Source: an uncultured Bacilli bacterium
GTDB lineage: Bacteria > Bacillota_I > Bacilli_A > RF39 > UBA660
Direction of reading: 5' to 3'
Length of the DNA: 64,000 bases
Assembly (NCBI GenBank): GCA_934183155.1
Contig: CAKPSB010000003.1
Span: forward strand, 3,818 to 67,817
Part shown: positions 20,637 through 49,801 of the stretch, piece after piece
Position numbering within the stretch: position 1 is the first letter of the stretch
How the letters are laid out: the number at the start of each line of letters is the position of its first letter
Notes under the pieces: generated by a model
The model's input: only the letters and a program-made list of their open reading frames with translations
The model's database searches: none
What the model was told of the DNA's origin: nothing
Translations under genes and position numbers: made by a program

Positions 20637-21407
20637 CTAAAGAATAAGCTTTTTTATTTTTTCTAATCCATTTTTTTCTAATCTAGATATTTGCGCTTGA
20701 CTTATACCAATTTCAGCTGCAAGTTCAGTTTGCGTTTTACCAATTAAATATCTTTGTGTAATAATATACCTTTCCTTATCCTTAATCTCATTCAAAGCTT
20801 TCCTTAAAGCAATCTTCGTTTCCAAATCATATATCTGATCGTCTTCCGAAAGCTGATCAGATAAATATATAACATCACCACCATCGCTATAAATCGGTTC
20901 AAACATACTAACAGTATCCTTCAAACTATTTAAAGAAAGCGCTACTTCCCACTCAGGTAAATTCATTTTTGCAGCAATCAAGCTAACTGAAGGTTCTTCA
21001 TTGTTCTGATATGTAAGTGTTTCCTTTAGCTTTAAAGCTTTATAAGCTATATCCTTAATACTTCTAGAAATTCTAAGAGATGTATTATCCCTTAAATATC
21101 TTTTAACTTCACCCAAAATCATTGGAACAGCATACGTACTAAACCTAACTCCATGGGAAAGATCAAAGTTATCAATAGCCTTAATTAAGCCAATTACTCC
21201 AACTTGAAATAAATCATCCAAGTTATCACATCTACCAGAAAAACTTTTTAAAACCGCTAAAACCAATTTCAAATTACCATTAATCAAAGTATCTTTTGCT
21301 TCCATATTCCCACTTTGATAACTTTTAAACAACTCTACTTGCCTTTCATTAGATAAAACTTCAATATTCGCAGTATTCACGCCACATATATCAACTTTAT
21401 GACGTGC
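20637..21407 (-). CDS. sigG: Sporulation sigma factor SigG. Likely start is MARHKVDICGV.
   Basis: KVDICGVNT…NGNLKLVLAV…DDLFQVGVIGLIKAIDNFDLSHGVRFSTYAVPMILGEVKRYLRDN…FEPIYSDGGD…ISQAQISRLEK. This matches the B. subtilis SigG signature blocks closely. Confidence 0.85.
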   Translation of the reverse strand, partial: ARHKVDICGVNTANIEVLSNERQVELFKSYQSGNMEAKDTLINGNLKLVLAVLKSFSGRCDNLDDLFQVGVIGLIKAIDNFDLSHGVRFSTYAVPMILGEVKRYLRDNTSLRISRSIKDIAYKALKLKETLTYQNNEEPSVSLIAAKMNLPEWEVALSLNSLKDTVSMFEPIYSDGGDVIYLSDQLSEDDQIYDLETKIALRKALNEIKDKERYIITQRYLIGKTQTELAAEIGISQAQISRLEKNGLEKIKKLIL

Positions 21408-21455
21408 CATAATAAAACTCCTTTCTACCATTATATTGGTAAAAAGAAGTTAATT

Positions 21456-21977
21456 TTAAACAAAAAGATAAATAAATAACAAAATTAAAAAAATCAAAAA
21501 TAAAATCATAGAAAATATAAAAATAATTTGTTTATTACTAAAACATTTCTTTAACTTATTATATATAAAATACAAATATATAAATAATCCAAATATTAAA
21601 CACAAATATGACAAAAAAATAGAAATTTTTAAACAAATCATAGAAAAAACTATACATATAATTAAAAATATACTATTTGAAGCAAATAAATTAAAATAAT
21701 TAATAAAGCTTATTTTTCTTTCATATAAATGAACTAAAAAAGGCAAAATAAAGAAAAAAATAAAACCAAATAACAAAACAAGCATAAATGAAAATAAATA
21801 ATTTTCTTTTACTTGTGACACTGTTACAAACTGATTTAAAACATTTGCGTTTTCAATAAAAGACTCAGTATTTAATTTTACAATAGATTGCTTTAAAAAA
21901 ACATAAAAAATAGCTAAAACTAAAGATGTTATCCCAACAAGTAATATATTTTTATAAATTTTTACCATCAACATCAC
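21456..21977 (-). CDS. Hypothetical polytopic membrane protein
   Basis: ORF track. 173 aa, about 5 TM segments. It overlaps the PAP2 gene by 26 nt. Confidence 0.4.
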   Translation of the reverse strand: MMLMVKIYKNILLVGITSLVLAIFYVFLKQSIVKLNTESFIENANVLNQFVTVSQVKENYLFSFMLVLLFGFIFFFILPFLVHLYERKISFINYFNLFASNSIFLIICIVFSMICLKISIFLSYLCLIFGLFIYLYFIYNKLKKCFSNKQIIFIFSMILFLIFLILLFIYLFV

Positions 21978-22569
21978 CTTTTAAATACTTATCTAAAATA
22001 GAAATATATACAATCAAATAAGCCCCACTAATAGCAAAACCAGCACATACATCACTAGGATAATGAACCCCTAAATAAATACGACTCATTCCTATCAAAA
22101 AAATAAAAATACCTAAAAAAACTTTAAAAATAACCTTAGAACTTTTATCCAAATTTATCCTATCAATTAAAAAAATAATAAAACCATAAAAGCCTAATGA
22201 TAACATAGCGTGTCCAGAAGGAAAACTATAACCACTTTCAAAAACCATCATTAAATCATAAGGTCTAGGTCGTGCGAAAAATAATTTTAAAAAGTAATTA
22301 AATAAAAAAATTAAAACAGCATTTGTAGTTATCAAAAAACCATATTTTTTATCAATAAAAAAGCTTAAAAAACATATTAAAATTATCATAAAAGGACTTG
22401 AAAATAAAGTAACAAATTTATATAAACAAGTTAATAAATTATTATCAATTTTAACTATATTATATATATAGTTATCAAAAGGATATATTTTATTAATTGA
22501 AACCATATAAGCAAAAAATAAAAATATACATAATAAAAATGTAAAAACAAACCATTTAAACTTTGTCAT
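21952..22569 (-). CDS. PAP2 family phosphatase (undecaprenyl-diphosphatase/lipid phosphatase type)
   Basis: KLFFARPRP…SFPSGHAM…SRIYLGVHYPSDV. These are PAP2 motifs 1-3. Confidence 0.7.
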   Translation of the reverse strand: MTKFKWFVFTFLLCIFLFFAYMVSINKIYPFDNYIYNIVKIDNNLLTCLYKFVTLFSSPFMIILICFLSFFIDKKYGFLITTNAVLIFLFNYFLKLFFARPRPYDLMMVFESGYSFPSGHAMLSLGFYGFIIFLIDRINLDKSSKVIFKVFLGIFIFLIGMSRIYLGVHYPSDVCAGFAISGAYLIVYISILDKYLKGDVDGKNL

Positions 22570-22610
22570 TCTATCATCAACCTTACATCAAAATAATATC
22601 TTATGATTTT

Positions 22611-23480
22611 CTAATTTCGCTTTATTGCGTTAGGAACCTTTTTAATATGGTTACCTATAATCTCTGACACATCAAAAATAGTTACAAAAGAAGAAGAATC
22701 AATATCATCTAAAATATCCCTCAAAATAGAAACTTCAAATCTTGTAATAACCGTATATAAAACTTTCTTATCATTATGTGAAATAATTCCTTCACCTGAT
22801 AAAACAGTAACAGTTCTTCCTAATCTTTTCAATATTTCTTTAGAAATTTCATCACCATCATCAGTAATTATAAAAGCCGCTTTCGCACTATTTAATCCAT
22901 CTGAAACCATATCAATAACCTTATAGCTTATAAAATAAGTAAGTAAAGAATATAAAGCTCTATCAGTTCCAAAAACAAAAATAGCCGCACCATAAATAAA
23001 AATATTAAAAGCAAAAACTACTTGTCCAACAGATAAACTTTTCTTTCTAGTTACTAAAATTGCTACTATTTCCGTGCCATCTAAACAGCCACCTTCTTTA
23101 ATAATTATACCAACACCAACACCTAAAGCAATACCACCATAAACGGTCGCTAATAAAGTATTATCAATTAATGGATTATAACGATGAAACACTTCTAACA
23201 ACGTACTAAAAAGTAACATAGCATACCCTGCTTTAATTAAAAACTTTTTGCCTAATGTTTTATATCCTAAAATTAAAAAAGGTAAATTTATCAAAAATAT
23301 AATTAATCCCAAAGAACCACCAAATAAAGTATTTATAATTATTGATACACCATTCATACCACCGTCAATCATTTTATTTGGAATCAATATAAGCTCCAAT
23401 GCAGCCGCTGAAATTATTGCACCAACTGTAATTAATACAAGTGATAAAAAAAATCTTTTTGTAAATAATCTTTGTTTCAT
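22611..23480 (-). CDS. YitT-family membrane protein (DUF161 membrane domain plus DUF2179 C-terminal domain)
   Basis: 289 aa. The N-terminal TM half is GMNGVSIIIN…GYKTLGKKF. The C-terminal soluble domain pattern is typical of the YitT/YqfU family. Confidence 0.6.
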   Translation of the reverse strand: MKQRLFTKRFFLSLVLITVGAIISAAALELILIPNKMIDGGMNGVSIIINTLFGGSLGLIIFLINLPFLILGYKTLGKKFLIKAGYAMLLFSTLLEVFHRYNPLIDNTLLATVYGGIALGVGVGIIIKEGGCLDGTEIVAILVTRKKSLSVGQVVFAFNIFIYGAAIFVFGTDRALYSLLTYFISYKVIDMVSDGLNSAKAAFIITDDGDEISKEILKRLGRTVTVLSGEGIISHNDKKVLYTVITRFEVSILRDILDDIDSSSFVTIFDVSEIIGNHIKKVPNAIKRN

Positions 23481-23573
23481 AATACCTCACCTAATTTAAT
23501 TATAAACAAGTTTTTAAATATTTAAAAGAGATATAAAAAAAATATAATGAAGTTTACATTATTTTCTAATATA

Positions 23574-24638
23574 TTAAATATCAATATTTTTCTCTATTAT
23601 TCGTCTATTTTCTAAAAGTCGTTCATCAGCATCTATTTTAATAGCCTTATCAATATTTTCTAAAGCCTTTTTATAATCATTTATATTAAAATAACAAATA
23701 GATAAAAGGTCATAAATATATAATGGCAAACAAAAATATTCATTTATATAAGTTTTATAATTAGTTTTAATTTCTAACGCCTTATTTAAAAATGTAATAG
23801 CATCTTCATATCTTTTAATATCATAATAAAATAAACCCAATTCAGCATATCCATCTTTTAAATATGGTGCTTCTAAAATAGCTTTTTTATACCACATCTC
23901 AGCCTCATCATATCTTTTTAAATTCTTATAACATCTTCCAATAAATCTCATTGAAGCACATCTTTCATCTTTCCATGTTGCTGTTTTTAAATTTAAATGT
24001 TTAATAAATGTATCAATTGCCTTATTCCAATCACCAAGATACATATACTCTCTACCTAAATAGTGCATATTACGATCATCTAAAGGATTTTCCTTTACCG
24101 AAATCTCAAGCAGCGGTAAATAATTTCTAATTTTATCTTTATCAGGATAATGATTTAATACTATATCTACAAACACCTTTTTTTCCTTACAATCACATTT
24201 TAAAACTTCATGAACTGGATAAATCCACCGATAACCCCTTCTACTATGAATCTTTTCATAATAAAAACTAACTAATGGAATATTGTCCTTTAAAGACCAA
24301 TTATATATATATGAAGCCCTCGTAGTACCTTTATTCCAAGCCTTTTCTAACTTATCTCGCCACCCTTTTTCAAACACTTCATCTATATCTGTACACACAC
24401 AAATGTCCGCATCATCATCTACCATATCTAAAGACATATTTCTAGCCTTATCAAAACGCCATGGATTTATTAAGCTATATTTAACTTTCACACCAAGCTC
24501 TTTTAAAATTTTCACAGAATCATCTGTAGAACCTGTATCTAAAACAAAAATTTTATCAGCCTCGCTCATTGAATCAAACCATCTTCTTATAAATTTCTCT
24601 TCATTTTTGCAAATAGCATAAACACACACTTTGTACAT
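23574..24638 (-). CDS. Family 2 glycosyltransferase fused to C-terminal TPR repeats
   Basis: The N-terminus MYKVCVYAICKNEEKFIRRWFDSM…VLDTGSTDDS is the GT2 DxD region. The C-terminal ~150 aa has TPR-like W/Y/A periodicity (AEMWYKKAILEAP…AELGLFYY…). Confidence 0.65.
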   Translation of the reverse strand: MYKVCVYAICKNEEKFIRRWFDSMSEADKIFVLDTGSTDDSVKILKELGVKVKYSLINPWRFDKARNMSLDMVDDDADICVCTDIDEVFEKGWRDKLEKAWNKGTTRASYIYNWSLKDNIPLVSFYYEKIHSRRGYRWIYPVHEVLKCDCKEKKVFVDIVLNHYPDKDKIRNYLPLLEISVKENPLDDRNMHYLGREYMYLGDWNKAIDTFIKHLNLKTATWKDERCASMRFIGRCYKNLKRYDEAEMWYKKAILEAPYLKDGYAELGLFYYDIKRYEDAITFLNKALEIKTNYKTYINEYFCLPLYIYDLLSICYFNINDYKKALENIDKAIKIDADERLLENRRIIEKNIDI

Positions 24639-24668
24639 AAAATCACCTAATAAATTATATGATTTTCC

Positions 24669-25358
24669 TCAACTTTTATCTAATTGTTTTAATCTTTTAA
24701 TAACTTTTTTTTCAATTCTTGAAATATAAGATTGTGAAATTCCCATCATTCTAGCAACATCTTTTTGTGTCATCTCATCCTCGTTATAAAGACCATACCT
24801 TAATATCATTATTTTTTTATCTCTCTCATTTAAACAATTAATCTCTTGATAAAGCAACTTCTTTTCAATTTCCTCCTCTAAACCTTTAGTAACAACATCA
24901 CTATCAGTCCCAAGTACATCTTCTAAATGTAACTCATTACCTTCAGCATCATAACTTAAATTATCTTCAAAACTAATTTCCGCTTTTCTTCGTTTATTTT
25001 TTCTCAAAAACATCAATATTTCATTATCAATACACCTTGAAGCATATGTCGCAAGTTTAATATTTTTGTCTAACTTATAAGTATTCACCCCTTTTATCAA
25101 ACCAACACTACCAATACTAACTAAATCTTCCAAATCGACTCCTGTATTTTCATACTTTTTAGCCAAAAAAACAACTAAACGCAAATTATGTTCAATAAGT
25201 TTATTACGCGCACTATCATCACCATTTGTCGATAAAATTACATATTTTATTTCATCATCTTTAGAAAGTGGCGCTGGTAATTTATCCGCACTACCAATAA
25301 AAAAAACAGCTTCATCTTTAAAAATTTTCTTAATAAATTTAATTATTCTTCTAATCAT
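24669..25358 (-). CDS. sigE: Sporulation sigma factor SigE (pro-sigma-E with N-terminal pro-sequence)
   Basis: FIGSADKLPAPLSKDDE…IEHNLRLVVFLAKKYENTGVDLEDLVSIGSVGLIKGVNTY…KLATYASRCIDNEILMFLR…MMGISQSYISRIEK. This matches B. subtilis pro-SigE closely. Confidence 0.85.
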   Translation of the reverse strand: MIRRIIKFIKKIFKDEAVFFIGSADKLPAPLSKDDEIKYVILSTNGDDSARNKLIEHNLRLVVFLAKKYENTGVDLEDLVSIGSVGLIKGVNTYKLDKNIKLATYASRCIDNEILMFLRKNKRRKAEISFEDNLSYDAEGNELHLEDVLGTDSDVVTKGLEEEIEKKLLYQEINCLNERDKKIMILRYGLYNEDEMTQKDVARMMGISQSYISRIEKKVIKRLKQLDKS

Positions 25359-25359
25359 T

Positions 25360-26127
25360 TTAACCCTCCATTAATCCATTTAATAAAACATCCATATTAA
25401 TATTTTCATTAAAAGCTAAATAAATATTTTCAAACATTCCAATTCCAACCACCTCCACCCTTCTAACTTTTATTCCCTCTAAAATGCCACTAGCACCAAC
25501 AGATGTATAAGGAATATACATTTTCTTATTTTTAAAAGTATTTTTAATATTCGTTATTATAACTGGTTTTCCTTTAAAAGTAAGTGTATTACCAGTATCT
25601 AAATAACCATTTAAATTAAGTATCCTTCTACCTATATAAATATTTACTTTATAAGTATTAACTATTTTCTTTTTATACATTATATTTTGTTTTACATAAA
25701 AATATAATACTAAAGGTGATACTATAATTAAAAAGATAAAATTTATACTTATACCATTGTTATAAAATAAAATTCCTTTATGACTATAAGCAAACTCAAT
25801 GTTCAAAACATATAAAAACCCCCCTAAAAAAATACTAACAATATAAAACATAACAATGTTAACTAAAAAAGTTTTTAAATTTCTATACCCAAATGTAATT
25901 AAAATCATTAAAATACTTAAATATAATTTTATAAAAAATAACTGTAAAGAACTTATTTTAAAAAAAAGCACTAAAATAGTTAAACTTCCAACAAATGCGC
26001 CCAAAACAATTCTAAAAATTTTTACATTTCGTTTTAATAATATTTGAACAGAAAAAAGTAGCAAAAAATCAAAAAAGAAATTTAAAAAAAGCACTTCATC
26101 AATATAAATAGTCATTTTACCACCCAA
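25360..26127 (-). CDS. spoIIGA: Sigma-E processing peptidase SpoIIGA
   Basis: It is a membrane protein immediately upstream of sigE. The N-terminus IYIDEVLFLNFFFDFLLLFSVQILLKR matches the SpoIIGA start. DTGN is present in GYLDTGNTLT, the aspartic protease motif. Confidence 0.7.
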   Translation of the reverse strand: MGGKMTIYIDEVLFLNFFFDFLLLFSVQILLKRNVKIFRIVLGAFVGSLTILVLFFKISSLQLFFIKLYLSILMILITFGYRNLKTFLVNIVMFYIVSIFLGGFLYVLNIEFAYSHKGILFYNNGISINFIFLIIVSPLVLYFYVKQNIMYKKKIVNTYKVNIYIGRRILNLNGYLDTGNTLTFKGKPVIITNIKNTFKNKKMYIPYTSVGASGILEGIKVRRVEVVGIGMFENIYLAFNENINMDVLLNGLMEG

Positions 26128-38547: not shown

Positions 38548-39519
38548 GTGAAAAAAATTACAAGCATATTAATCATGATTATTTTAATATTTATCGGATT
38601 TGAAATATTAACAAAATCCGAAAGCATATTAAAAGCAGTTGATTTTTCTTTAAATATTTTTAAAAATAACATTTTTCCATCATTATTTCCTTTTTTTGTA
38701 TTATCAAACATTTTAATCAAATGTGGCTTACCAGAATTAATGGGCTGTTTATTCAAAAAAATTATGAATAAATTATTTAAAATTAAAGGTATAACATCTT
38801 TCATATTTTTTATGAGTATTATCTCAGGAAACCCCGCAAACGCAAAATATACAAAAGAACTTTTATTAGAAGGAAAAATTAATAAATATGAAGCCACTAA
38901 AATATTATGCTTCACATCTTTTTCTAATCCACTTTTTATATTAGGAACAGCCTCTATGTTTTTAAATAATAAAGAAGTTGGCATTCTAATTTTAATCTGC
39001 CACTATTTAGGAAATTTATTTATAGGATTAGGCATGCGTAAATATCATCCAAGCAAAATTGAAAATGAAAAAATTAGTTTACTTAAAGCTATTAACGAAA
39101 TGCATCAAAAAAGAATTAGTAACAAAGATAATTTAGGAATTATTATTACTAACTCTTTAATAAGTAGTATTAACACACTACTTTTAATATTAGGTGTTAT
39201 TACAACATGTTTAGTAATAACAACAATTATAGATAATAATTTAAATTTAAATGACGTCCTACAAAGCATTTTAAACGGTTTTGTTGAAATGACACAAGGC
39301 TTAAAATATATAAGCATGCAAAATATACCATTAAAACTAAAATGCGTTTTAACCGTCATGATTTTATCATTTTCTGGTTTTAGTGTGCATCTTCAAATAA
39401 TGAGTATACTAAGTGACACTGAAATCAAATATTTACCATTTTTATGTGCTAGAATATGTCATGCCTTAATCTCTTCATTACTCATGTATATTTCTTTTGA
39501 CTTTTTTATAAATTTATAA
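38548..39519 (+). CDS. ylbJ: YlbJ-like sporulation integral membrane protein (nucleoside-recognition/Gate domain). GTG start.
   Basis: Polytopic membrane protein divergent from ylbL. This matches B. subtilis ylbJ-ylbL neighbourhood synteny. RBS AGAGGTG precedes the GTG. Confidence 0.55.
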   Translation: MKKITSILIMIILIFIGFEILTKSESILKAVDFSLNIFKNNIFPSLFPFFVLSNILIKCGLPELMGCLFKKIMNKLFKIKGITSFIFFMSIISGNPANAKYTKELLLEGKINKYEATKILCFTSFSNPLFILGTASMFLNNKEVGILILICHYLGNLFIGLGMRKYHPSKIENEKISLLKAINEMHQKRISNKDNLGIIITNSLISSINTLLLILGVITTCLVITTIIDNNLNLNDVLQSILNGFVEMTQGLKYISMQNIPLKLKCVLTVMILSFSGFSVHLQIMSILSDTEIKYLPFLCARICHALISSLLMYISFDFFINL

Positions 39520-39984
39520 AAAATAGTAAAATGTTATTTTATATTCATAAGGCTTAGATAAAGAACTATGATTTAATTTTAAATAAATTGATAAATAACA
39601 ATTATAATCATCAGGATTAACATAAGGATTTAGGCTATAATCTTCTATAACAGTTCCATCTGGTAGATTAAAAACCTGATTTCCAACTGTAACTTTAGCT
39701 GGAGTAGTTTCATCTCCCTTATCAATAACAATTTTTGAATTAACAGCTCCGCTAATATTACAAGTATTGTCTAAACAAGAAAGATAAGTTCCATCAGAAG
39801 GTAAAGCTGCTTTTATATTCTTAGATATAATACCAAGTTTTTCTTGGATAGCTGTTTTAACAGAAGTTTCTGCAAAAACATCTTTAACTTCAATCAATAC
39901 TTCAAAAAGAAAAACAGTAATAATCATTGTTAATGCAAAAGATGTAATTAACTCAACAACTGTAAATCCTTTATTATTTTTCAT
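39514..39984 (-). CDS. Type IV pilin-like / pseudopilin protein
   Basis: Class III signal MKNNKG|FTVVELITSFALTMIITVFLF (G-1, F+1, E+5). 156 aa with C-terminal Cys residues. RBS AGGAGGG. Confidence 0.6.
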   Translation of the reverse strand: MKNNKGFTVVELITSFALTMIITVFLFEVLIEVKDVFAETSVKTAIQEKLGIISKNIKAALPSDGTYLSCLDNTCNISGAVNSKIVIDKGDETTPAKVTVGNQVFNLPDGTVIEDYSLNPYVNPDDYNCYLSIYLKLNHSSLSKPYEYKITFYYFL

Positions 39985-39995
39985 AAGCCGCCCTC

Positions 39996-42755
39996 CTAAC
40001 TCCTAATAAATTTCCATTTTTGAGCATTACTCCTATTACAAGTATAACCCCAAACATTTGCGCCACTACTATTTCCAGATGCATCAACACATAAACCATC
40101 AATATTTTTAAACTCATAATAATCATTTTCAACATTACTTATATAGTAATGCCCACCATGATAATAATGAAAATTCCAAGTTACAATGTTAGTTTTAGAA
40201 GTGCTAGAATTACCAGCAACCCACAAATACTGACTACCATCTACTTGTGATTGAAAATTATAAATAATATTACTATTTTCTATTCTATTAGCCATAACTT
40301 TCCACTTTTGAGCACTTGAACTATTACCAGTATACATTTGAACATTAGTTCCGTTTGCAGCAGCTGCTCCATAAACATCAATTTTTAAATTATTATTTAA
40401 AGCTGACGCTATACTATAAGTATTAGTTGTCGTTGTAAATTTCTTACTACTATCATATAAAGTTCCACTTATAACTATAATATTATTATATAAAGTATTT
40501 TGACTATTTGTATTAGCACTTATATTTATAGAACTACCGCTTATACTAGTCTGACCTCCTTCAATAGTTATACCACCACTTCTAATTTTTTCTGAGCTAT
40601 AACCATTTTTTAAAGTAACATTATCATCAATATTAAGTATACCATTAGTATATATAAGTGACCCTGTTGCTTGAACACTATTACCATCCAAAACAATATT
40701 TTTTAAAGTAAGTGTCCCATTTTCAAAATCAACCATACTTTCATTAACAAAACTAGAACTTCTTATTAAAGAATAAGTTCCATTATAACTAGTTAAAGTT
40801 ATTTTTTTATTATCTGTTAAAATAAGCTTTTCAGTTATTCCAATATCACTCATCAAATGAATTGTCGCTCCATTTTTAGCACTATCATACGCTTTTTTAA
40901 TTGAATAGAAAGGATGAGACATAGTACCATCACCATCTAAATCACTTCCAGCAGAAGAAACATAATAATCACTCATAGCAATTTGACTTTCATCCTGTTT
41001 TATATGTCTTCCTTCAGAAACTTCTTTAAAATTAGAAGTACTATCAACTAAACTAAATGAATTACTATTACCAGCCACATATGTGTTATTTTGATAATAT
41101 TTTCTGCCATCAGCATAATAATGCCATACACCTATTTCTTCTAAATTATATTCTTGTCCTAAATCAACCGTAACACATTGATTAACATAATTATCAGAAA
41201 TTCCATCAACATACTTATCTTCATCATCAATTATTCCATCAACAACAGTACTAAACGTTCCAGTACCATGAACCGAACTAGTAGCAAAATCACCAGTCAC
41301 ATTCTTACCTTTAGCAACGTTTACGCCATCACTAATAGCTTGAATTTCAATCCAATGATTATTACCATTCACTGAATTTCCACCAATACAATTTTTTACA
41401 TATCTAACATTTTTTATTTTAGCACTATCACTTGTTGGGTTACTACCTAAATAAGAAATTTTTGCCATACCATCTTGACTATTAACACTACCCTGCATAT
41501 CCGTATTTATAAAATATTTATTTGAAAAATGAATAGTTTGATTTGTATGTACACCACTAATATTTATAGCATTAACCCCAGCATAGCCAGAAATATATGA
41601 AGATCCGCCGCCACCACCAGCATGCCATTTGGCACCAGAGCCTCCATAATATCCACTACCGCCGCCGCCACCAACGTGGCCATCGGAATAAGCTGCGCCA
41701 TTTCCGCCTTTACCAAAACTTCCAGCCGTTCCACCTGTACTATTAGCCTTACCACCTTTAGTTTGATAAGCCTTTAAACCAGCATAAGTATTTGCTACCA
41801 CATTAGCATAAACCTTTCCATTATTACCAATTAAAGTACCAGCTTCACCACCATGAGCTCCATTAGAATTATTAGACACGCCACCACCACCAGCAGCAAC
41901 CATAATTCTACTTTTTAAAGAAGTAGCATCATTCCAAGCACCTCCAGTTAATCTAACATCAGTAGCTCCACCACCACCACTTTTCGAAGAACTCCAACCA
42001 GTTCCACCACCATTAAAAAGATTTTCTCTAGTACCTGAAGCTCCTACATAAACATATAAATTTTGTCCTCTGTCTAAATAAACTTCTCCTTTAGTATAAG
42101 AGCCTAATCCTCCAGAATTGTCACTAGATCCACCTTGTGCACCCCAAAGCTCAATCTTATAATAACCTGGCATCTTCGTATAATATGTCTGAACATCACC
42201 TGTATACGTATACTCTTTAGTCTCTAAACTATTATCATATTTTGTATCAATAGCTATTGTTGCAAAAGTTCCATTTTTAAATTTAGCAAACAAACGGCCT
42301 TTATTTTTAATTATTTGAGCATCGACTTTACTAATAAAATCTCTTAAATCTTGTTTTAAAACAGCATCTTCTGTTGTTTTAACATAATCTTGAATAACAC
42401 TTAAATCTGATGAAGTGTAAATTAAAGTTTCTACCCCTGTTTGACTCATAATATTATCACAAAATCCAGTACTTTTAAGACCAATACTATCATTACAAGA
42501 ACCATTATTATAAACCATTAAATAAGGATTTCCTTTTATATAATTACCAAAAGGTTTATCCTGATTTTTTCTAAAATATTCACCTATTGATCCCAAATCA
42601 TAAACGCCCTCTACACTATTATAAGCATAACTGTTATTATAATTTATAACCAAATTTCTAAATTGAATAAATAAAAACATTAGAATAGTTAAAACAAACG
42701 TTGAAACTACTAATGACTCTGCTAATAAAAAACCCCGATTATTTACTCTTTTCAT
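39996..42755 (-). CDS. Giant (919 aa) prepilin-signal protein. It has a Gly-rich region, a beta-helix domain and a C-terminal ricin-B lectin. It is a putative pilus-displayed adhesin or carbohydrate-binding protein.
   Basis: N-terminus MKRVNNRG|FLLAESLVV… is a prepilin-peptidase site with Glu+5. Residues ~200-400 are GGxG-rich (GGGGSGYYGGSGAKWHAGGGGGSSY). The segment …DLDGDGTMSHPFYSIKKAYDSAKNGATIHLMSD… is a classic right-handed beta-helix cap. The C-terminus has QxW repeats (SAQKWKV…, NAQKWKFI), i.e. a ricin-type beta-trefoil. RBS AAAGGAG. Confidence 0.6.
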   Translation of the reverse strand: MKRVNNRGFLLAESLVVSTFVLTILMFLFIQFRNLVINYNNSYAYNSVEGVYDLGSIGEYFRKNQDKPFGNYIKGNPYLMVYNNGSCNDSIGLKSTGFCDNIMSQTGVETLIYTSSDLSVIQDYVKTTEDAVLKQDLRDFISKVDAQIIKNKGRLFAKFKNGTFATIAIDTKYDNSLETKEYTYTGDVQTYYTKMPGYYKIELWGAQGGSSDNSGGLGSYTKGEVYLDRGQNLYVYVGASGTRENLFNGGGTGWSSSKSGGGGATDVRLTGGAWNDATSLKSRIMVAAGGGGVSNNSNGAHGGEAGTLIGNNGKVYANVVANTYAGLKAYQTKGGKANSTGGTAGSFGKGGNGAAYSDGHVGGGGGSGYYGGSGAKWHAGGGGGSSYISGYAGVNAINISGVHTNQTIHFSNKYFINTDMQGSVNSQDGMAKISYLGSNPTSDSAKIKNVRYVKNCIGGNSVNGNNHWIEIQAISDGVNVAKGKNVTGDFATSSVHGTGTFSTVVDGIIDDEDKYVDGISDNYVNQCVTVDLGQEYNLEEIGVWHYYADGRKYYQNNTYVAGNSNSFSLVDSTSNFKEVSEGRHIKQDESQIAMSDYYVSSAGSDLDGDGTMSHPFYSIKKAYDSAKNGATIHLMSDIGITEKLILTDNKKITLTSYNGTYSLIRSSSFVNESMVDFENGTLTLKNIVLDGNSVQATGSLIYTNGILNIDDNVTLKNGYSSEKIRSGGITIEGGQTSISGSSINISANTNSQNTLYNNIIVISGTLYDSSKKFTTTTNTYSIASALNNNLKIDVYGAAAANGTNVQMYTGNSSSAQKWKVMANRIENSNIIYNFQSQVDGSQYLWVAGNSSTSKTNIVTWNFHYYHGGHYYISNVENDYYEFKNIDGLCVDASGNSSGANVWGYTCNRSNAQKWKFIRS

Positions 42756-42852
42756 ATTTTTTCTCCTTTGAAGATTGTTTTTATTCTAGAACTATTATAT
42801 AATATATTTAGGATAAAAGCTAGTCCCAAAAAGAATAAAGGAGCCTGATAAA

Positions 42853-44190
42853 ATGATAAGAAATTTTGATTTTGCAAAAATGCCAATAGTTGATGTAATA
42901 AATGAAATATTAACCGATTCATCTAAACGAGGAGCTAGTGATATTCACTTTGATCCATACGAAGAATATCTACTTATTAGAATTAGAATTGATGGTATTT
43001 TAATGGATTATGCTAAAGTACCAAATGAATATAGAGATTACCTTGTTACACGAATTAAAACCATTTCTAGAATGAATATTACCGAATCTAGACTACCACA
43101 AGATGGAGCCATCAAAGGAAACATTAATGGAATTGACCTAGACTTGCGTGTATCTGCTCTACCTGTTAGTACTGGAGAAAAAATAGTAATTCGTATTTTA
43201 GACTACAGCCGTAGTATGGCTGGTTTAGAGGAATTAGGGTTTAATGACGAAAATTATAAAAAAATACTTGAAATGATAAGTGTTCCAAATGGAATCATTT
43301 TAGTAACCGGAGCAACTGGTAGTGGTAAAAGTACAACCGTTTACTCAATGCTTCAATATTTAAATACTTCAGCAACAAACATAATCACTGTTGAAGACCC
43401 AATTGAAATGGACATAAGAGGAATTAATCAAGTTCAAACGAACTCTAAAATTGGCTTAACATTTGCCACTGCTTTAAGATCTATTTTAAGACAAGATCCA
43501 AATATCATCATGATTGGTGAAATACGTGATACTGAAACTGCCAAAATTGCTATTCGTGCTTCTATAACAGGCCACTTAGTTTTATCAACATTACACACCA
43601 ACACCGCTTTAAACACTATCGAAAGACTTATTGATATGGACGTTCAAAAATACCTATTAGCATCTGCTTTAGAAGGTGTTGTATCTCAAAAATTAGCTCG
43701 TCAATTATGCACGCACTGTCGCACACTAAGAAAAACAAGCAATTATGAAAAAATGATTTTCAAAACAGTTTTAGGTAAAGATGTTGAAGAAATATATGAT
43801 GTTGAAGGCTGTGAACATTGTCACGATGGCTATAAAGGAAGAATTGCCATCCATGAAGTATTAAGAATTGATCAAAACATTCGTGACGCTTTAAGTAACA
43901 ACGAAAGTAAAGAAAAAATTCGTGAACTTGTCTATGGTAGTGGTAATGTTATTACAATGCTTCAAGATGGTTTACAAAAAGTCATAGAAGGAAAAACTAC
44001 ATTTGAAGAAATATTAAAATTAATTGACCTTGAAGACGATGATAAAATTAGCAGTAATAGTTCGTTAAAAAATTCTATAATGGAAGCAAAAGAAGTTATG
44101 ACCGCAAAAGAAAAGAAAAATAATGAATCATTAGGCATCAAAGAAGAGAATAAAGAAATCTACTCAGCAGAAGACATTGAAACACTTTAG
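42853..44190 (+). CDS. Type II/IV secretion system ATPase (PilB/GspE/ComGA family)
   Basis: Walker A GATGSGKST. Asp box, Walker B and His box region (…TGHLVLSTLHTN…). Tetracysteine motif CTHCR…CEHCHDGYKGR. It is divergent from the pilin genes and ends at a bidirectional terminator (44221-44250). Confidence 0.85.
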   Translation: MIRNFDFAKMPIVDVINEILTDSSKRGASDIHFDPYEEYLLIRIRIDGILMDYAKVPNEYRDYLVTRIKTISRMNITESRLPQDGAIKGNINGIDLDLRVSALPVSTGEKIVIRILDYSRSMAGLEELGFNDENYKKILEMISVPNGIILVTGATGSGKSTTVYSMLQYLNTSATNIITVEDPIEMDIRGINQVQTNSKIGLTFATALRSILRQDPNIIMIGEIRDTETAKIAIRASITGHLVLSTLHTNTALNTIERLIDMDVQKYLLASALEGVVSQKLARQLCTHCRTLRKTSNYEKMIFKTVLGKDVEEIYDVEGCEHCHDGYKGRIAIHEVLRIDQNIRDALSNNESKEKIRELVYGSGNVITMLQDGLQKVIEGKTTFEEILKLIDLEDDDKISSNSSLKNSIMEAKEVMTAKEKKNNESLGIKEENKEIYSAEDIETL

Positions 44191-44220
44191 AACTTTTATA
44201 AGTTCTTTTTTTATAAAAAA

Positions 44221-44250
44221 AATCAGAAAATAAATTTCTGATCTTATTCA
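44221..44250. terminator. Bidirectional terminator
   Basis: aaaaaaaATCAGAAAtaaaTTTCTGATcttattc. Confidence 0.55.
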
Positions 44251-44708
44251 TATTTAGCAATAGCTTTAGCAACAACGCCTTTTAATTCGCCTTTAGTAAC
44301 TGCTGTAATTGTTCTTGTTTCACCAGCTTTTAAAGTATCACCAATATTACCTCTTAATGTAATAATAGTATTACCATCTTTATCTTTTAAATCAATATTT
44401 ACATCATTAATACTACTATCAGTATTTGCTGTATTTGTTACATCAGCTGTAAAAGTACTATAACCGTCCTTTGTAATTAAAGAAATATTAGTAAATTTTA
44501 AATTCTCATATACTTCCTCTTTTACAACACCCGCTTTAGTATTTGCTACCATTTCTTTTTTAGTATTCAAAACTAATTTTTCTTTTTTAAAGTTATTTGA
44601 TAAAGTAATACCAACAGTTAAAGCAATAATAGCGGCTAAAGCAACAATTAAATAATTTTTGTTTTTTTCTACAAATTCAACTACTTGTTTTTTTGAAATA
44701 TTCTTCAT
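44244..44708 (-). CDS. Hypothetical N-terminally membrane-anchored protein (154 aa)
   Basis: ORF track. One TM helix followed by a Thr/Asn-rich, probably beta-rich, domain. Confidence 0.35.
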   Translation of the reverse strand: MKNISKKQVVEFVEKNKNYLIVALAAIIALTVGITLSNNFKKEKLVLNTKKEMVANTKAGVVKEEVYENLKFTNISLITKDGYSTFTADVTNTANTDSSINDVNIDLKDKDGNTIITLRGNIGDTLKAGETRTITAVTKGELKGVVAKAIAKYE

Positions 44709-44762
44709 ATTCTCCCCTACCTTCTACAATAATTATAAGGGATATCTTTTATAATTTCAATA

Positions 44763-45209
44763 CTATAAATAAATTTTTAATTTATTTATATAAGTTTCAC
44801 CAAATTTTAATAAAGCTTTAGCCATATTTATAACCTTACTATCAACTTTGTTTTCAAACTTTCCAATATTTTTTGACAATTCTAAATTACCCATAGTTAA
44901 TCCCTTTATTAACATATCAGCAACACTAGCATCACTATTATCTTCTAATAATTCTTTATTAATACTTATTTTAGACATAGCTTTAGCCATAATATTCACA
45001 CCTTTAGCATCTAATTTGTGTTTTTTTAATAATTTCTCTGCTTCTAAAGAATATTTTTCATAATTTTTTTTAATTTCAAATAAAATATTTATTATCTTAT
45101 TATCTTTGTTTTTTAAAGCTTTCAATAAGTTTTCACTGCTTTGCACACCCATATTACAAGTCTGATAAATATAATTTAATAACTCTTCATTTTCATTCAT
45201 TTTCATCAC
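44763..45209 (-). CDS. Hypothetical all-alpha protein (148 aa)
   Basis: ORF track. No motif recognised. Confidence 0.35.
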   Translation of the reverse strand: MMKMNENEELLNYIYQTCNMGVQSSENLLKALKNKDNKIINILFEIKKNYEKYSLEAEKLLKKHKLDAKGVNIMAKAMSKISINKELLEDNSDASVADMLIKGLTMGNLELSKNIGKFENKVDSKVINMAKALLKFGETYINKLKIYL

Positions 45210-46742: not shown

Positions 46743-47996
46743 CTATTTTTTAGCATTTAGTTTTTTGTCTCTATAAACTATAATACCAACACCACCAGCA
46801 ATAATTACTAAGCCTACACCTAAAATAATTAATGGAACACTAGCAGCAGTATTTGGAACATCAATATTAGTTCCACAATCCCATGCACCATAAAGTGTTA
46901 AATTATTATTTAAAGCAGTACCGTCAGTCCATTTACCAGTTAAATCATCTTTAGTAAACCAACCTTTAAATTTGCAATTTTCTTGTCTAGTAGTTAATTC
47001 ATTTTCTTGATCATATTTAGTACCTTTGTCAAAACAATTAGTACCAGGAGTTGGATCAGTCAAATTTGGATCAGGTTTAACATTACCAACAATAACATAA
47101 TTAACACAAACTCTTGGCTTATCAACTTTTGCAGTTAACTCAAATGATTTAGATAAATTATCATTGTCAGTATATAAAACTGCTAATCTTTGATAAGAAG
47201 AATCACTAGGTTGATAAATATACGCTTTAGTGTTTACACCATTTGCTGAAACAATAACTTTAATAGTAGTAGTTTGACCTAAAGCATTAGCTGGAATTTT
47301 AACTTGGAATTTTTCTCCAGCATTAAATGTAGTTTTAGATTGACCTTGAGTATTAGTAATTACTGTACCAGTAGGAGCTCCGCTGACTGCAACATTATAA
47401 ACTGTTGTACCAGTTAAAGTTGGAGCAATTTCATTTGAAACAAAGTAATTGCCATCATTAGATAAAATCATATTACTATTACTTACATTAACTGATAAAG
47501 TTGATGCAGCATTAGCTTTAGCTGTTTTAGCTCCAGCTACTAAAGCCTTAATGTTATCTCTAATGCCATAAGGATCAGCAGAATTAGTAGTAAAATCAGC
47601 ACTTAAAGCACCAGATTGACCAGTATCAGCTAAATACCACCATAAAGCACCTTGTGTAATAAATCTATCCAAATCATTATTACCTTTGATTGATTTATAA
47701 GGATAACCATTTTCTAAGATATATCTAATACCATTATCTGCTTCTTTAACTAAATTAACATTGGTTGTTTTTTCAGGCCATTTTTTTTCTACATCCATAC
47801 AATAAGCAACTTTGCCATCGTTAGTTCTAAATTTAGCCCATTTATAATTTTCTCCAATATAAGATACCATTACTCCTTCTCTACTAATAGTAGGATTTTT
47901 AGGAGCAGCACTTACTGTAGATACACTCGTAACAGTTAAAACTGCTACAAGTAAAAATGTACAAATTATACCATAAAGTTTTTTCATAGTTTTCAT
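46743..47996 (-). CDS. Surface adhesin with thioester-domain (TQXA) motifs and a Listeria-Bacteroides (Flg_new) repeat. C-terminal membrane/cell-wall anchor with a non-canonical VPNTA motif.
   Basis: Signal peptide. Cys motif VAYCMDVEKKWP and Gln motif FITQGALWWY. C-terminal …KFKGWFTKDDLTGKWTDGTALNNNLTLYGAWD… (Flg_new-like). The tail is …DVPNTAASVPLIILGVGLVIIAGGVGIIVYRDKKLNAKK (sorting-signal-like). Confidence 0.5.
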   Translation of the reverse strand: MKTMKKLYGIICTFLLVAVLTVTSVSTVSAAPKNPTISREGVMVSYIGENYKWAKFRTNDGKVAYCMDVEKKWPEKTTNVNLVKEADNGIRYILENGYPYKSIKGNNDLDRFITQGALWWYLADTGQSGALSADFTTNSADPYGIRDNIKALVAGAKTAKANAASTLSVNVSNSNMILSNDGNYFVSNEIAPTLTGTTVYNVAVSGAPTGTVITNTQGQSKTTFNAGEKFQVKIPANALGQTTTIKVIVSANGVNTKAYIYQPSDSSYQRLAVLYTDNDNLSKSFELTAKVDKPRVCVNYVIVGNVKPDPNLTDPTPGTNCFDKGTKYDQENELTTRQENCKFKGWFTKDDLTGKWTDGTALNNNLTLYGAWDCGTNIDVPNTAASVPLIILGVGLVIIAGGVGIIVYRDKKLNAKK

Positions 47997-48013
47997 AATT
48001 ATTCCTCCTTACT

Positions 48014-49801
48014 TTAACGTACCTTTGGCTTTACATCATTAAGATCTTCAACGCCATAAACTTTTTTATTTAATCTTCTCATAATTTCATCAACTTGTTC
48101 ATCGATAGTCTTATCTTTCTTACTATTTGAAAAAACTACGCTTTCATTATTAATCGTTTTTAGATCATCAACTGACTTATCTTTATCAGTTTTATTCTTT
48201 TTTCTTTTTCTTTCAGCTTCAGATAAAGCTGCTGCACCAATACCAGCTAATATTCCAGGCAAAACATTTGCCTCATCACCAGTTTGTGGTAAATTTCCTT
48301 GAGGAGTAACTGGAACAGATGGTTGTTCTGGCGTATTAGGAATATCTGGAGTATCAGGAGTGTCAGGCTTTGGCTTATCGCCAGGATTCTCTGGTTCCTT
48401 AGGATTGTTATCATCATGAGATGGTTTTAAGCTTGGAGTTGCATCAGGATTTTCTGATGTTTTTTTATTTTCTTCTAATTGATCAGAAACACCTGCAACA
48501 GTAGCAACATAGTTCTCACCTTTATATTTAAAAGTATAACTATTGCCATCAACAGTCTCAACATCATAATTTCCAAAATATGAATGTCTAACATCATCTT
48601 CCATATTGTCAGTTGGTGCATCTGGTAAAGCTACCAAATTGACTATTGCATCAGCTGGTATTTTACCTTCAGCTTGTAAACGTGAAACTAAATCTTGAAA
48701 TTGATTATTTGAAAGGCCAACACCGCCTACTGCTAAATAATAAACTCCCTCATCTTGTAAAATAACATATTGATTATCCCCAACAACAATTTTGTTTTCT
48801 GAAACAACTTGATCATTTTTATTTTCACTATCTTGAACATTAGTGTTGTTCTGTTCCTTATTTTCAGTACTTTGAGTTAATATAACATTGCCATCTTCAT
48901 CTTTAATAATTGCTGTGCCATTCTCATCATAATCAACAGAATAACCAGTATCAGCAATTTTGCCAGATTGACCAGTTTTAATAATATTTTCAAAATCATA
49001 TGCGGTAACATTACCTGATGAAATATCAACACCAGCATCTACTAATTGTTGAGCTAAAACCTCAGGAGCAGGAATATTACCAATTACTATTAATTGTCCA
49101 TCTTTTTCAATAAGATCATAACCATCAAAGTGTTTTACACTAGACTTTTGAATATTTTCATTAGTTACTTGCTCTTGTGTATTTGAAATATTACTTTCTA
49201 AAACATCTTCTACCGTATTTGTTTTAGTGCTTTCAGCTGGAGCAACTTCATCTTGTGTCTCAGCAGGTGTAACTTCAGAAGCGTTTTCAGCTGGAGCAAC
49301 TTCATCTTGAGTCTCAGCAGGTGTAACTTCAGAAGCGTTTTCAGCTGGAGCAACCTCATCTTGAGTCTCAGCAGGTGTAACTTCAGAAACATTTTCAACT
49401 GGAGCAACCTCATCTTGAGTCTCAGCAGGTGTAACTTCAGAAACATTTTCAGCTGGAGCAACCTCATCTTGAGTCTCAGCAGGTGTAACTTCAGAAGCAT
49501 TTTCAGCTGGAGCAACTTCATCTTGCGTCTCAGCAGGTGTAACTTCAGAAACATCTTCAGCCGGAGCAACATAAGTCTGCTCTAAAGTAGTAGGTGTAGT
49601 TGTATCAATAATTGCTGGAGCTTCCTCAGCTAACGCTTTACCAGGACTCATAATAGTAGCTAAAGCTGTCGCAACAGAAAATCCACCAATCAATACTCTA
49701 TTTCTTTTTTCTCTTAAAAAAGCACGTAATTTTTCAAGAGAACCGCTATTTAAACTAGCTGAATTAAATTTTTCTCTAAATAATTTAAATTTCATAAACA
49801 T
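48014..49801 (-). CDS. Repeat-containing surface protein with an LPQTG sortase motif
   Basis: Signal peptide. It has 7-8 copies of a 16-aa acidic repeat (EVTPAETQDEVAPAEN[AV]S). A Pro-rich stalk is followed by …QGNLPQTGDEANVLPGILAGIGAAALSEAERKRKKNK…. An unusual 55-aa hydrophilic extension follows the putative sorting signal. Confidence 0.55.
   Translation of the reverse strand: MFMKFKLFREKFNSASLNSGSLEKLRAFLREKRNRVLIGGFSVATALATIMSPGKALAEEAPAIIDTTTPTTLEQTYVAPAEDVSEVTPAETQDEVAPAENASEVTPAETQDEVAPAENVSEVTPAETQDEVAPVENVSEVTPAETQDEVAPAENASEVTPAETQDEVAPAENASEVTPAETQDEVAPAESTKTNTVEDVLESNISNTQEQVTNENIQKSSVKHFDGYDLIEKDGQLIVIGNIPAPEVLAQQLVDAGVDISSGNVTAYDFENIIKTGQSGKIADTGYSVDYDENGTAIIKDEDGNVILTQSTENKEQNNTNVQDSENKNDQVVSENKIVVGDNQYVILQDEGVYYLAVGGVGLSNNQFQDLVSRLQAEGKIPADAIVNLVALPDAPTDNMEDDVRHSYFGNYDVETVDGNSYTFKYKGENYVATVAGVSDQLEENKKTSENPDATPSLKPSHDDNNPKEPENPGDKPKPDTPDTPDIPNTPEQPSVPVTPQGNLPQTGDEANVLPGILAGIGAAALSEAERKRKKNKTDKDKSVDDLKTINNESVVFSNSKKDKTIDEQVDEIMRRLNKKVYGVEDLNDVKPKVR
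49225..49565. repeat. Tandem 48-bp coding repeat, about 7 copies, inside the LPQTG protein gene
   Basis: Near-identical units …cagctggagcaac(t/c)tcatcttg(a/t)gtctcagcaggtgtaacttcagaa(g/a)c(g/a)ttttc…. They also generate spurious repetitive ORFs in other frames (49210..49585). Confidence 0.8.

Follow-up and report, generated by a model that had tools for sequence, protein, structure and literature searches.

Three genes for the ATPase and minor pilins of a probable type IV filament, one pilin carrying interchangeable modules, in an uncultured lineage of gut Bacilli

Three neighbouring genes in a 64-kb stretch of DNA from an uncultured Bacilli bacterium (hereafter the window, meaning the whole stretch analyzed) probably make up one half of a conventional type IV filament machine, that of the ATPase and the minor pilins, with the platform, the prepilin peptidase and the major pilin encoded elsewhere in the genome. 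The initial annotation had left two readings open, namely that the partner genes lie elsewhere or that the system is unusually reduced. We favor the former because the peptidase (PilD) and platform (PilC) genes adjoin the orthologous ATPase gene in a sister clade, because complementary half-loci occur in related lineages, and because the genes are under purifying selection; the 'minimal system' reading fails, and what is encoded is most likely a type IV filament of the ordinary kind whose genes lie scattered. The features of the locus are listed below (in the leaders, a slash follows the conserved Gly at position -1).

39514..39984, minus strand: pilS, small minor pilin; ORF of 156 aa; leader MKNNKG/FTVVEL; GspJ/XcpW-like fold
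39996..42755, minus strand: pilBIG, modular pilin; ORF of 919 aa with Pfam domains
42231..42755, minus strand: pilBIG pilin module, aa 1-175, including the leader MKRVNNRG/FLLAESL
41448..42173, minus strand: pilBIG ALK/LTK-type glycine-rich domain, aa 195-436 (Pfam PF12810, 1e-39 to 3e-41)
40437..41447, minus strand: pilBIG central region, aa 437-773; sub-threshold F5_F8_type_C_2 match (E 0.014), galactose-binding-like
40008..40436, minus strand: pilBIG C-terminal ricin-type beta-trefoil lectin module, aa 774-916 (RicinB_lectin_2 8e-15, Ricin_B_lectin 7e-10)
42756..42852, no strand: divergent intergenic region between pilBIG and the ATPase gene, 97 bp; AAAGGAG 8 nt before the ATPase ATG
42853..44190, plus strand: GspE/PilB-type assembly ATPase, 445 aa (T2SSE 4e-126), with tetracysteine motif
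44189..44242, no strand: pair of adjacent AT-rich hairpins with T and A runs on either side; fold -12.6 kcal/mol, z -2.4

The two minus-strand genes had been annotated as starting with class III signal peptides, and both ORFs, with their leaders and about 20 hydrophobic residues each, are as described; their N-termini carry the only two class III-type motifs in the six-frame translation of the window. Only 11 nt separate pilBIG (upstream) from pilS, so the two presumably form a single operon. The reading frames of all three genes are intact, and all three are under purifying selection (pN/pS between strains of 0.05-0.10 for the ATPase, 0 for pilS and 0.16-0.33 for pilBIG). The annotated 'bidirectional terminator' is a rough fit to the two hairpins, which share A/T runs and are likely the terminators of the ATPase gene and of a convergent gene for an FxLYD-domain protein, and which a GC-requiring terminator scan missed. 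A consensus scan for the ATPase promoter in this AT-rich DNA gave no more sites than shuffled sequence; its one -35/-10-like site (minus strand, 42829-42801) is not above chance. The housekeeping neighbors named in the annotation are ylbL/ylbJ on one side, as stated, and yebC/rnc on the other, with two small genes that had been omitted (that for the FxLYD-domain protein and one for a 148-aa protein) between the ATPase gene and yebC/rnc.

Judged from its motifs (Walker A and B, Asp and His boxes: GATGSGKST, GEIRDxET and a His-box), the window ATPase is predicted to be an extension ATPase of the GspE/PilB class, presumably hexameric, and 80 of 81 ATPase sequences, that of the window included, retain these catalytic motifs unbroken. 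Its tetracysteine motif reads CTHC, 38 residues, CEHC; it has no N1/MshEN N-terminal domains, and its C-terminal tail is acidic and lysine-rich. It scores 488.6 bits with the GspE model and 471.4 bits with the PilB model, each under the model's own equivalog cut-off, and its nearest PDB entries are GspE 4pht (3.5e-107) and PilB 5zfr (2e-100). Of the three-part family label PilB/GspE/ComGA given on annotation, the first two parts and the tetracysteine motif thus stand and the third does not: the match to the ComGA model NF041000 spans residues 18-282 only and reaches 260.3 bits against a cut-off of 300.

The class III motif is invariant at G-1 and E+5 across 25 orthologues of pilS and 31 of pilBIG. 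The match of pilS to Pfam N_methyl is borderline (21.1 bits, cut-off 21.2), and N_methyl is not reported for pilBIG in the Pfam scan. Sequence-profile searches of the PDB with the two families gave no match; the structure model of pilS resembles GspJ-type minor pilins and shows the 'lollipop' fold of type IV pilins (a long N-terminal helix on a beta-sheet head), and the pilin module of pilBIG bears a weak likeness to GspI-type pilins.

A modular pilin has been defined as an N-terminal class III pilin module joined to at least one extra domain that is not pilus-specific (Raynaud 2021, PMC8179133), a definition that pilBIG fits with its pilin module, ALK_LTK_GRD domain and ricin lectins. Against the PDB, the ricin module matches the xylanase CBM13 1knl (8e-4), and a sequence relative of the central region was not found. 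Orthologues in the sister clade, at 150-170 aa, consist of the module alone (the basal form), whereas those in the window's own clade measure 390-919 aa. Depending on the species, orthologues carry DUF285, DUF6273, Laminin_G_3, BspA-LRR, GRD or ricin modules. This swapping of modules fits the modular-pilin concept (PMC8179133, PMC9934059). Searched by itself, the 175-aa pilin module brought up only 11 short proteins as homologues.

We compared the locus with those of 80 species-level genomes from related uncultured Bacilli with small genomes and low GC (relatives of CAG-822 / Ca. Coprosoma). The order ylbL-ylbJ-pilS-pilBIG-ATPase is kept in about 70 of the 80, with ATPase identities of 67-89%, and this conservation is vertical. 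Two groups of loci emerge from the ATPase tree, and they match those given by gene order. Tetranucleotide correlation does not separate the two clades. In the sister clade, as set by the ATPase tree, genes for a protein with A24_N_bact and Peptidase_A24 domains and for a protein with two T2SSF domains lie directly past the ATPase gene in 21 of the 23 informative loci (those with at least 4 kb of downstream sequence). The Peptidase_A24 gene is adjacent in 25 sister-clade loci, the platform there is 580-900 aa long with a long N-terminal extension, and two loci (L082 and L083) preserve the complete order including dnaG-sigA-trmK. Not one of 37 informative loci in the window's clade has PilC or PilD genes adjoining the ATPase gene. 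Four related lineages (L084/85, L086-88, L089-91 and L095) carry half-loci of the order dnaG-sigA-trmK-yqfQ-PilC-PilD that have no ATPase gene for 10 kb around; in three of the four a 126-129-aa pilin follows PilD, with the motif GF(T/S)LVELL in L084 and L089. No tie between these half-loci and the window's clade was found by shared contig, assembly accession, cluster names, tetranucleotide signature, or DNA or protein overlap. One of them (L086, PilD-sepF-divIVA) was considered as belonging to the window species and rejected: a strain contig carrying the window's exact PheS (L176) has MgtC before sepF. A subclade of seven species has both pilin genes cleanly deleted and the ATPase gene intact, from which it follows that the ATPase serves pilins encoded elsewhere; a 272-aa pilin with GFTLVEL is encoded separately in one member of the window's clade (L025).

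The annotated absence of a platform, a prepilin peptidase and PilM/N/O from the flanks was upheld. Pfam scans (1-49.8 kb, ORFs of 100 aa or more) and reading by eye of the ORFs of 50-64 kb found no T2SSF, Peptidase_A24 or PilM/N/O in the 64-kb window; lineage-specific platform and peptidase HMMs run against its six-frame translation found nothing (best E 0.028); and PilC and PilD are also absent from the 10 kb past each window end, which brings the coverage of the window species to about 84 kb. By Pfam, PilM, PilN, PilO and PilT, the set that would mark a monoderm type IVa pilus, were seen neither in the window nor around the complete sister-clade loci, and may be encoded elsewhere. For PilC and PilD, a profile search across 5.8 billion proteins gave sister-clade proteins for all of the best 120 matches listed; a scan of metagenomes with the ATPase did not bring up the 788-kb contig bearing P0314; and the literature on RFN20 and CAG-822 makes no mention of pili. 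A DUF87 lead (L024) was tried as a partner and rejected, being ylxM/ftsY context.

We infer that PilC and PilD are nevertheless present in this genome. The ancestral order, which the sister clade retains, is dnaG-sigA-trmK-yqfQ-PilC-PilD followed, on the opposite strand, by the ATPase gene, the two pilin genes, ylbJ and ylbL. In the window's clade the two halves were probably parted by a rearrangement that broke this order between PilD and the ATPase gene. PilD would cleave both prepilins past the conserved Gly; pilS and the pilin module of pilBIG may pair as a tip or priming complex, by analogy with GspI-GspJ or Streptococcus sanguinis PilA-PilC; and the hexameric ATPase would drive the platform to polymerize a major pilin of the GFTL(V/I)ELL type beneath that complex. 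Given the tip position, the glycine-rich and ricin-lectin modules would be displayed at the filament tip, where they may bind glycans or other gut ligands. One minor pilin has come to carry ligand-binding modules that can be exchanged, among them a bacterial glycine-rich domain of the ALK/LTK type and ricin lectins. These modules are candidates for what determines attachment to the host or to glycans in organisms that have so far resisted cultivation. Such a variable tip adhesin is mildly interesting, and the rest is most likely an ordinary filament; what this widespread uncultured lineage of small-genome gut Bacilli appears to keep is a very compact type IV filament set of ATPase, platform, peptidase and a few pilins.

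An alternative that takes the missing neighbors at face value is that the whole window clade (about 48 species) lost the GspF-type platform and PilD, with the ATPase and pilins using another partner, which may be a Tad-type TadB/C plus TadV of the kind found near mutS in close relatives, or a novel membrane protein. This would be a type IV filament motor under strong purifying selection with a non-canonical partner, and it would account for the 37 clade loci and the 84 kb devoid of PilC/PilD as well as for the lack of any PilC-PilD locus linked to this clade; several relatives, moreover, carry Tad-like loci about 5 kb upstream (TadA, a TadZ-like ParA/MinD-type ATPase, TadE-like, and TadB-like with a T2SSF domain). 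We nonetheless regard it as very improbable, in that no Tad locus was seen in the window or its flanks, absence from 84 kb of a genome of about 1.4 Mb is weak evidence, every type IV filament ATPase of the GspE/PilB class known to function has a GspF-family partner (PMC6916266), and the split loci exactly complement the order of the sister clade, in which the canonical partners adjoin the orthologous ATPase. The 'platform-less' pilus motor is a tempting false lead, best explained by rearrangement splitting a canonical five-gene cluster. Unlikely, though deserving more credence, is that the genes serve a Com-type competence pseudopilus for DNA uptake, not an adhesive pilus, the two pilins being ComGD/E/F-like minor pilins. 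The Bacillus/Streptococcus Com pilus (ComGA, ComGB, ComC, ComGC-GG) has the same minimal part list as the sister-clade loci (ATPase, platform, peptidase and pilins, with PilM/N/O and PilT not seen in those loci), and its peptidase and pilin genes are likewise separable from the rest; modular minor pilins can bind DNA, as does ComZ (cited in PMC8179133); and most pilin orthologues give weak ComGE, ComGD or ComGF matches. Those matches, however, all score far too low for their cut-offs and stem from the hydrophobic segment at the N-terminus, and the ATPase fails the ComGA model by the scores given above and bears the GspE/PilB tetracysteine motif. The gene order and the extended platform also differ from those of the Com pilus, Pfam scans of the window turned up neither comE nor comF, and the C-terminal modules are of lectin or adhesin type and are swapped between species, which is hard to reconcile with a DNA-binding role.

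That the locus is a decaying, non-functional remnant of a lost pilus system could be argued from the distance of its partners and from the subclade already without both pilin genes, but we consider this extremely improbable: motifs are invariant across dozens of species, the exact window proteins recur across metagenome assemblies (20 to 64 index blocks), and the intact frames and low pN/pS values contradict decay. The initial annotation had also described the unit as a small inserted island bracketed by core genes, and a horizontally acquired island between ylbJ and yebC would be in keeping with the flanking housekeeping genes and with the slightly raised GC of pilBIG (0.36 at 41-42 kb). The stretch of raised GC is that of the glycine-rich domain, however, composition is otherwise not anomalous, Pfam scans of the window found no integrase at the borders of the unit, and the distribution is not patchy; comparison with relatives, which the annotation had proposed as the check on insertion, places the unit at the same position beside ylbJ/ylbL in both major clades. 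An island is, on this synteny, hardly credible.

The closest known parallels are the modular minor pilins PilA-PilC and PilB of S. sanguinis (PMC8179133, PMC9934059), to which no similarity of the window pilins can be detected in sequence; here the modules, which vary by species, comprise an ALK/LTK glycine-rich domain with ricin lectins, and the genes are split and seen without PilM/N/O, whereas S. sanguinis has one pil cluster with pilM/N/O and pilT. Compared with the GspI-GspJ-GspK (XcpV-W-X) tip of type II secretion systems, the window organism is a monoderm without a secretin and GspC/L/M, its ATPase is without the GspL-binding N1 domain, equivalents of GspK or GspH were not identified, and the I-like subunit bears about 740 extra residues. 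Diderm type IVa pili differ in lineage, in their pilins and in having PilM/N/O/P/Q and PilT, which were not seen here, but their assembly genes too are scattered over the chromosome and not gathered in one operon (PMC6916266).

The window has a GC content of approximately 27% and carries the majority of its genes on the minus strand. The initial annotation had placed the three open reading frames (ORFs) considered here at exactly the right coordinates:

39514-39984, minus strand: pilS, a 156-aa ORF (minor pilin)
39996-42755, minus strand: pilBIG, a 919-aa ORF (modular pilin), whose end lies 11 nt upstream of pilS
42853-44190, plus strand: the assembly ATPase, a 445-aa ORF, separated from pilBIG by a 97-bp divergent spacer

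The prepilin-type N-termini proposed for both minus-strand proteins are present in full (a short polar leader with a terminal Gly, then Phe+1, Glu+5 and about 20 hydrophobic residues), and a six-frame pattern scan of the 64 kb places the prepilin-leader motif at these two sites only. The assignment of the third protein to the tetracysteine-bearing PilB/GspE ATPases was likewise borne out (Pfam T2SSE, 4e-126; nearest solved structures GspE/EpsE and PilB, 1e-100 to 1e-107), with Walker A, Asp-box, His-box and CxxC-x30-CxxC motifs complete. The protein has no N-terminal N1/MshEN region, and its alignment begins at GspE position 107 and PilB position 179. Against the ComGA equivalog model it fell short of the threshold (260 bits versus a cut-off of 300). 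Two AT-rich hairpins with T and A runs at their flanks lie between the ATPase and the convergent downstream gene.

We confirmed that platform, prepilin peptidase and PilM/N/O genes are absent nearby. Pfam scans of the first 49.8 kb, covering ORFs of 100 aa or more, found no T2SSF, Peptidase_A24 or PilM/N/O domains, the ORFs at 50-64 kb read by eye as housekeeping genes, and HMMs built from the lineage's own platforms and peptidases had no match in the six-frame translation of the window (best E 0.028). Using an 89-kb metagenome contig located by exact protein matches, we read an extra 10 kb per side; there were no pilus genes within 10 kb of either window end, the right flank containing yqfD, yabP, Band_7, NfeD, aspS, gatB and gatA, and the left pheT, ThiF, a class II aminoacyl-tRNA synthetase (tRNA-synt_2b), MgtC, sepF and divIVA. 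On the window's own contig a serine recombinase of 611 aa (Resolvase/Recombinase domains; L177:15510-17345) adjoins the contig end, some 5 kb to the left of window position 1; a contig from another sample (L176, 98.9% identical DNA) has the ThiF and tRNA-synthetase genes instead, and the recombinase looks like a strain-specific mobile element.

A scan for the ATPase in one genome per GTDB species yielded 80 loci (67-89% ATPase identity), all from uncultured small-genome Bacilli ('Firmicutes bacterium CAG:822', 'Ca. Coprosoma', complete MAGs of 1.3-1.5 Mb). In an ORF-by-ORF comparison, the order ylbL, ylbJ, pilS, pilBIG, ATPase was common to nearly all of them, which argues against the earlier suggestion of a small inserted island; the pilin-ATPase locus is old and vertically inherited, and is no insertion. 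The ATPase tree divides the loci into two groups, Clade I (the window, L001-L046, L062 and L074) and its sister Clade II (the remainder of L047-L080). The window's sporulation genes (spoIIGA and two sporulation-type sigma factor genes at 20637-26127, and ylbJ), with yqfD and yabP just outside it, show that the sporulation programme is kept in a lineage with genomes of about 1.4 Mb.

The two clades differ in what lies beside the ATPase. Two genes converge on it in Clade II, a prepilin peptidase (PilD; 255 aa, A24_N_bact and Peptidase_A24 domains) and a GspF-type platform (PilC; 580-900 aa, two T2SSF domains); among informative loci (at least 4 kb of downstream sequence), both adjoin the ATPase in 21 of 23 in Clade II and in none of 37 in Clade I. 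A library-wide profile search for the platform family, with contig look-ups, revealed two kinds of locus. L082 and L083 have the full order, dnaG-sigA-trmK-yqfQ-PilC-PilD followed by the opposite-strand ATPase, the pilins, ylbJ and ylbL, and this is the ancestral order. Four related lineages (L084/85, L086-88, L089-91 and L095) have dnaG-sigA-trmK-yqfQ-PilC-PilD with no ATPase within 10 kb, and three of them have a 126-129-aa pilin after PilD (reading GF(T/S)LVELL in L084 and L089). The gene content of these loci complements the window's half exactly. A metagenome scan found a lone ATPase plus pilin in further lineages, on contigs of 400-700 kb; given these and the complementary half-loci, cluster splitting is common, and the window is one half of a split cluster. 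Of the initial alternatives, that of a minimal, platform-less machine is not supported.

The cluster was apparently broken up independently several times. In two sister-clade genomes (L056 and L076) PilD and PilC are also gone from their usual place, and the ORFs that come immediately after the ATPase in L076 measure 217, 359 and 594 aa, the sizes of trmK, sigA and dnaG elsewhere. In the window, the position of PilD and PilC in the sister clade is taken at 44244-45209 by a 154-aa membrane protein with an FxLYD domain and a protein of 148 aa with no family match; throughout Clade I, the gene for the latter keeps its place to the right of the ATPase as its neighbour. The lineage's platforms (L047:12172-14865, L060:9387-11585, P0001-P0169) reach 580-900 aa versus the usual 400 or so, with a long N-terminal extension (a hydrophobic start, then a K/E-rich low-complexity stretch) ahead of the two T2SSF domains, and some also carry PF28597.

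Judged by their conservation, the window's pilin and ATPase genes are very probably functional. The 25 pilS and 31 pilBIG orthologues show no variation in the leader and cleavage motifs, the remaining sequence falling to 25-50% identity, and 80 of 81 ATPase sequences, including the window's, have all motifs intact (the exception, L034, has no tetracysteine match). Between strains of the window species, pN/pS is 0.05-0.10 for the ATPase and 0.16-0.33 for pilBIG, and pilS has zero nonsynonymous versus 5-7 synonymous changes. A monophyletic subclade of seven species (L010, L012, L014-L017 and L020) has lost both pilin genes in a clean deletion, so that ylbJ and the ATPase lie about 108 bp apart (for example, L010:9892-10001); its ATPase is intact with a longer C-terminal tail (474-529 aa), and the pilins that it serves must accordingly be encoded at other sites. 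One Clade I genome (L025) does have a 272-aa GFTLVEL pilin of this separate kind, beside spoVA genes.

None of the PilC-PilD loci that we recovered could be assigned to an assembly or contig of Clade I. The signs of function, the intact ATPase of the pilin-less subclade and the separate L025 pilin, taken as a whole, make it very likely that the peptidase and platform are encoded elsewhere in the window species' genome; that the clade truly lacks the pair is highly improbable.

Beyond its pilin module, the window's pilBIG contains three regions:

aa 195-436: ALK/LTK-type glycine-rich domain (GRD; 1e-39)
middle stretch of 340 residues: no assigned family, faint galactose-binding-like signal
aa 774-916: ricin-type beta-trefoil lectin module

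Other Clade I orthologues carry DUF285, DUF6273, ConA-like Laminin_G_3, BspA-type LRR, GRD or ricin modules instead. A few Clade II genomes show the reverse size pattern, with the other pilin as the large protein. Within the window species, pilBIG diverges by 1.8-4.1% at the nucleotide level versus about 1% for neighbouring genes, and some assemblies break within it. The strain differences (up to 4.1%) concentrate in the C-terminal modules, and some metagenome contigs begin in or near pilBIG (that of L184 inside the gene, that of L180 in the ATPase gene, some 500 bp upstream). Pilins of this large modular type, and proteins with a glycine-rich domain, are recurrent in the group; a related genome (L089:1-4242), a few kb from its PilC-PilD locus, encodes a 910-aa N_methyl pilin with Ig-like domains beside a GRD protein of more than 669 aa.

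Most likely, the three genes belong to a compact type IV filament system of a monoderm, with its genes dispersed and with a minor pilin that is modular and variable. In its modular-pilin design pilBIG resembles Streptococcus sanguinis PilB and PilC; there, the small pilin PilA attaches to PilC, which bears a lectin, and stabilises it within a proposed tip complex (PMC8179133; PMC9934059). As the likeliest mechanism, we infer that PilD would remove the 6- and 8-residue leaders, that GspJ-like pilS would pair with the pilBIG pilin module and prime assembly on the PilC platform, that the ATPase would power polymerisation of a small GFTL(V/I)ELL major pilin below this pair, and that the filament tip would display glycine-rich and lectin modules for attachment to gut glycans or other ligands. 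A Com-like role in DNA uptake is conceivable, the Clade II part list being Com-like; both the kind of ATPase and the exchange of adhesin and lectin modules between species speak against it. Most orthologues of both pilins match ComGE, ComGD or ComGF below threshold, through the N-terminal segment. Our literature search found no pilus report for this uncultured gut lineage.

In close relatives, the stretch immediately upstream of mutS-ylbL holds a Tad-type pilus locus (L005:1-2500, L009:1-3400 and L010:1-3920; also L014, L017, L020, L024 and L026), encoding a TadA/CpaF-like ATPase (442 aa), a TadZ-like ParA/MinD-type ATPase, TadE-like small proteins and a 481-497-aa fusion of Ig-like domains with a T2SSF (TadB-like) domain; no homologues of the TadA-, TadB- or TadZ-like proteins were found in the window. 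Just past rnc, at 46743-49801, the window encodes two surface proteins, one a thioester-domain (TED) protein with a Listeria-Bacteroides repeat, the other a 595-aa LPXTG-anchored protein whose long tandem repeat (…SEVTPAETQDEVAPAEN…) generates spurious ORFs on both strands.
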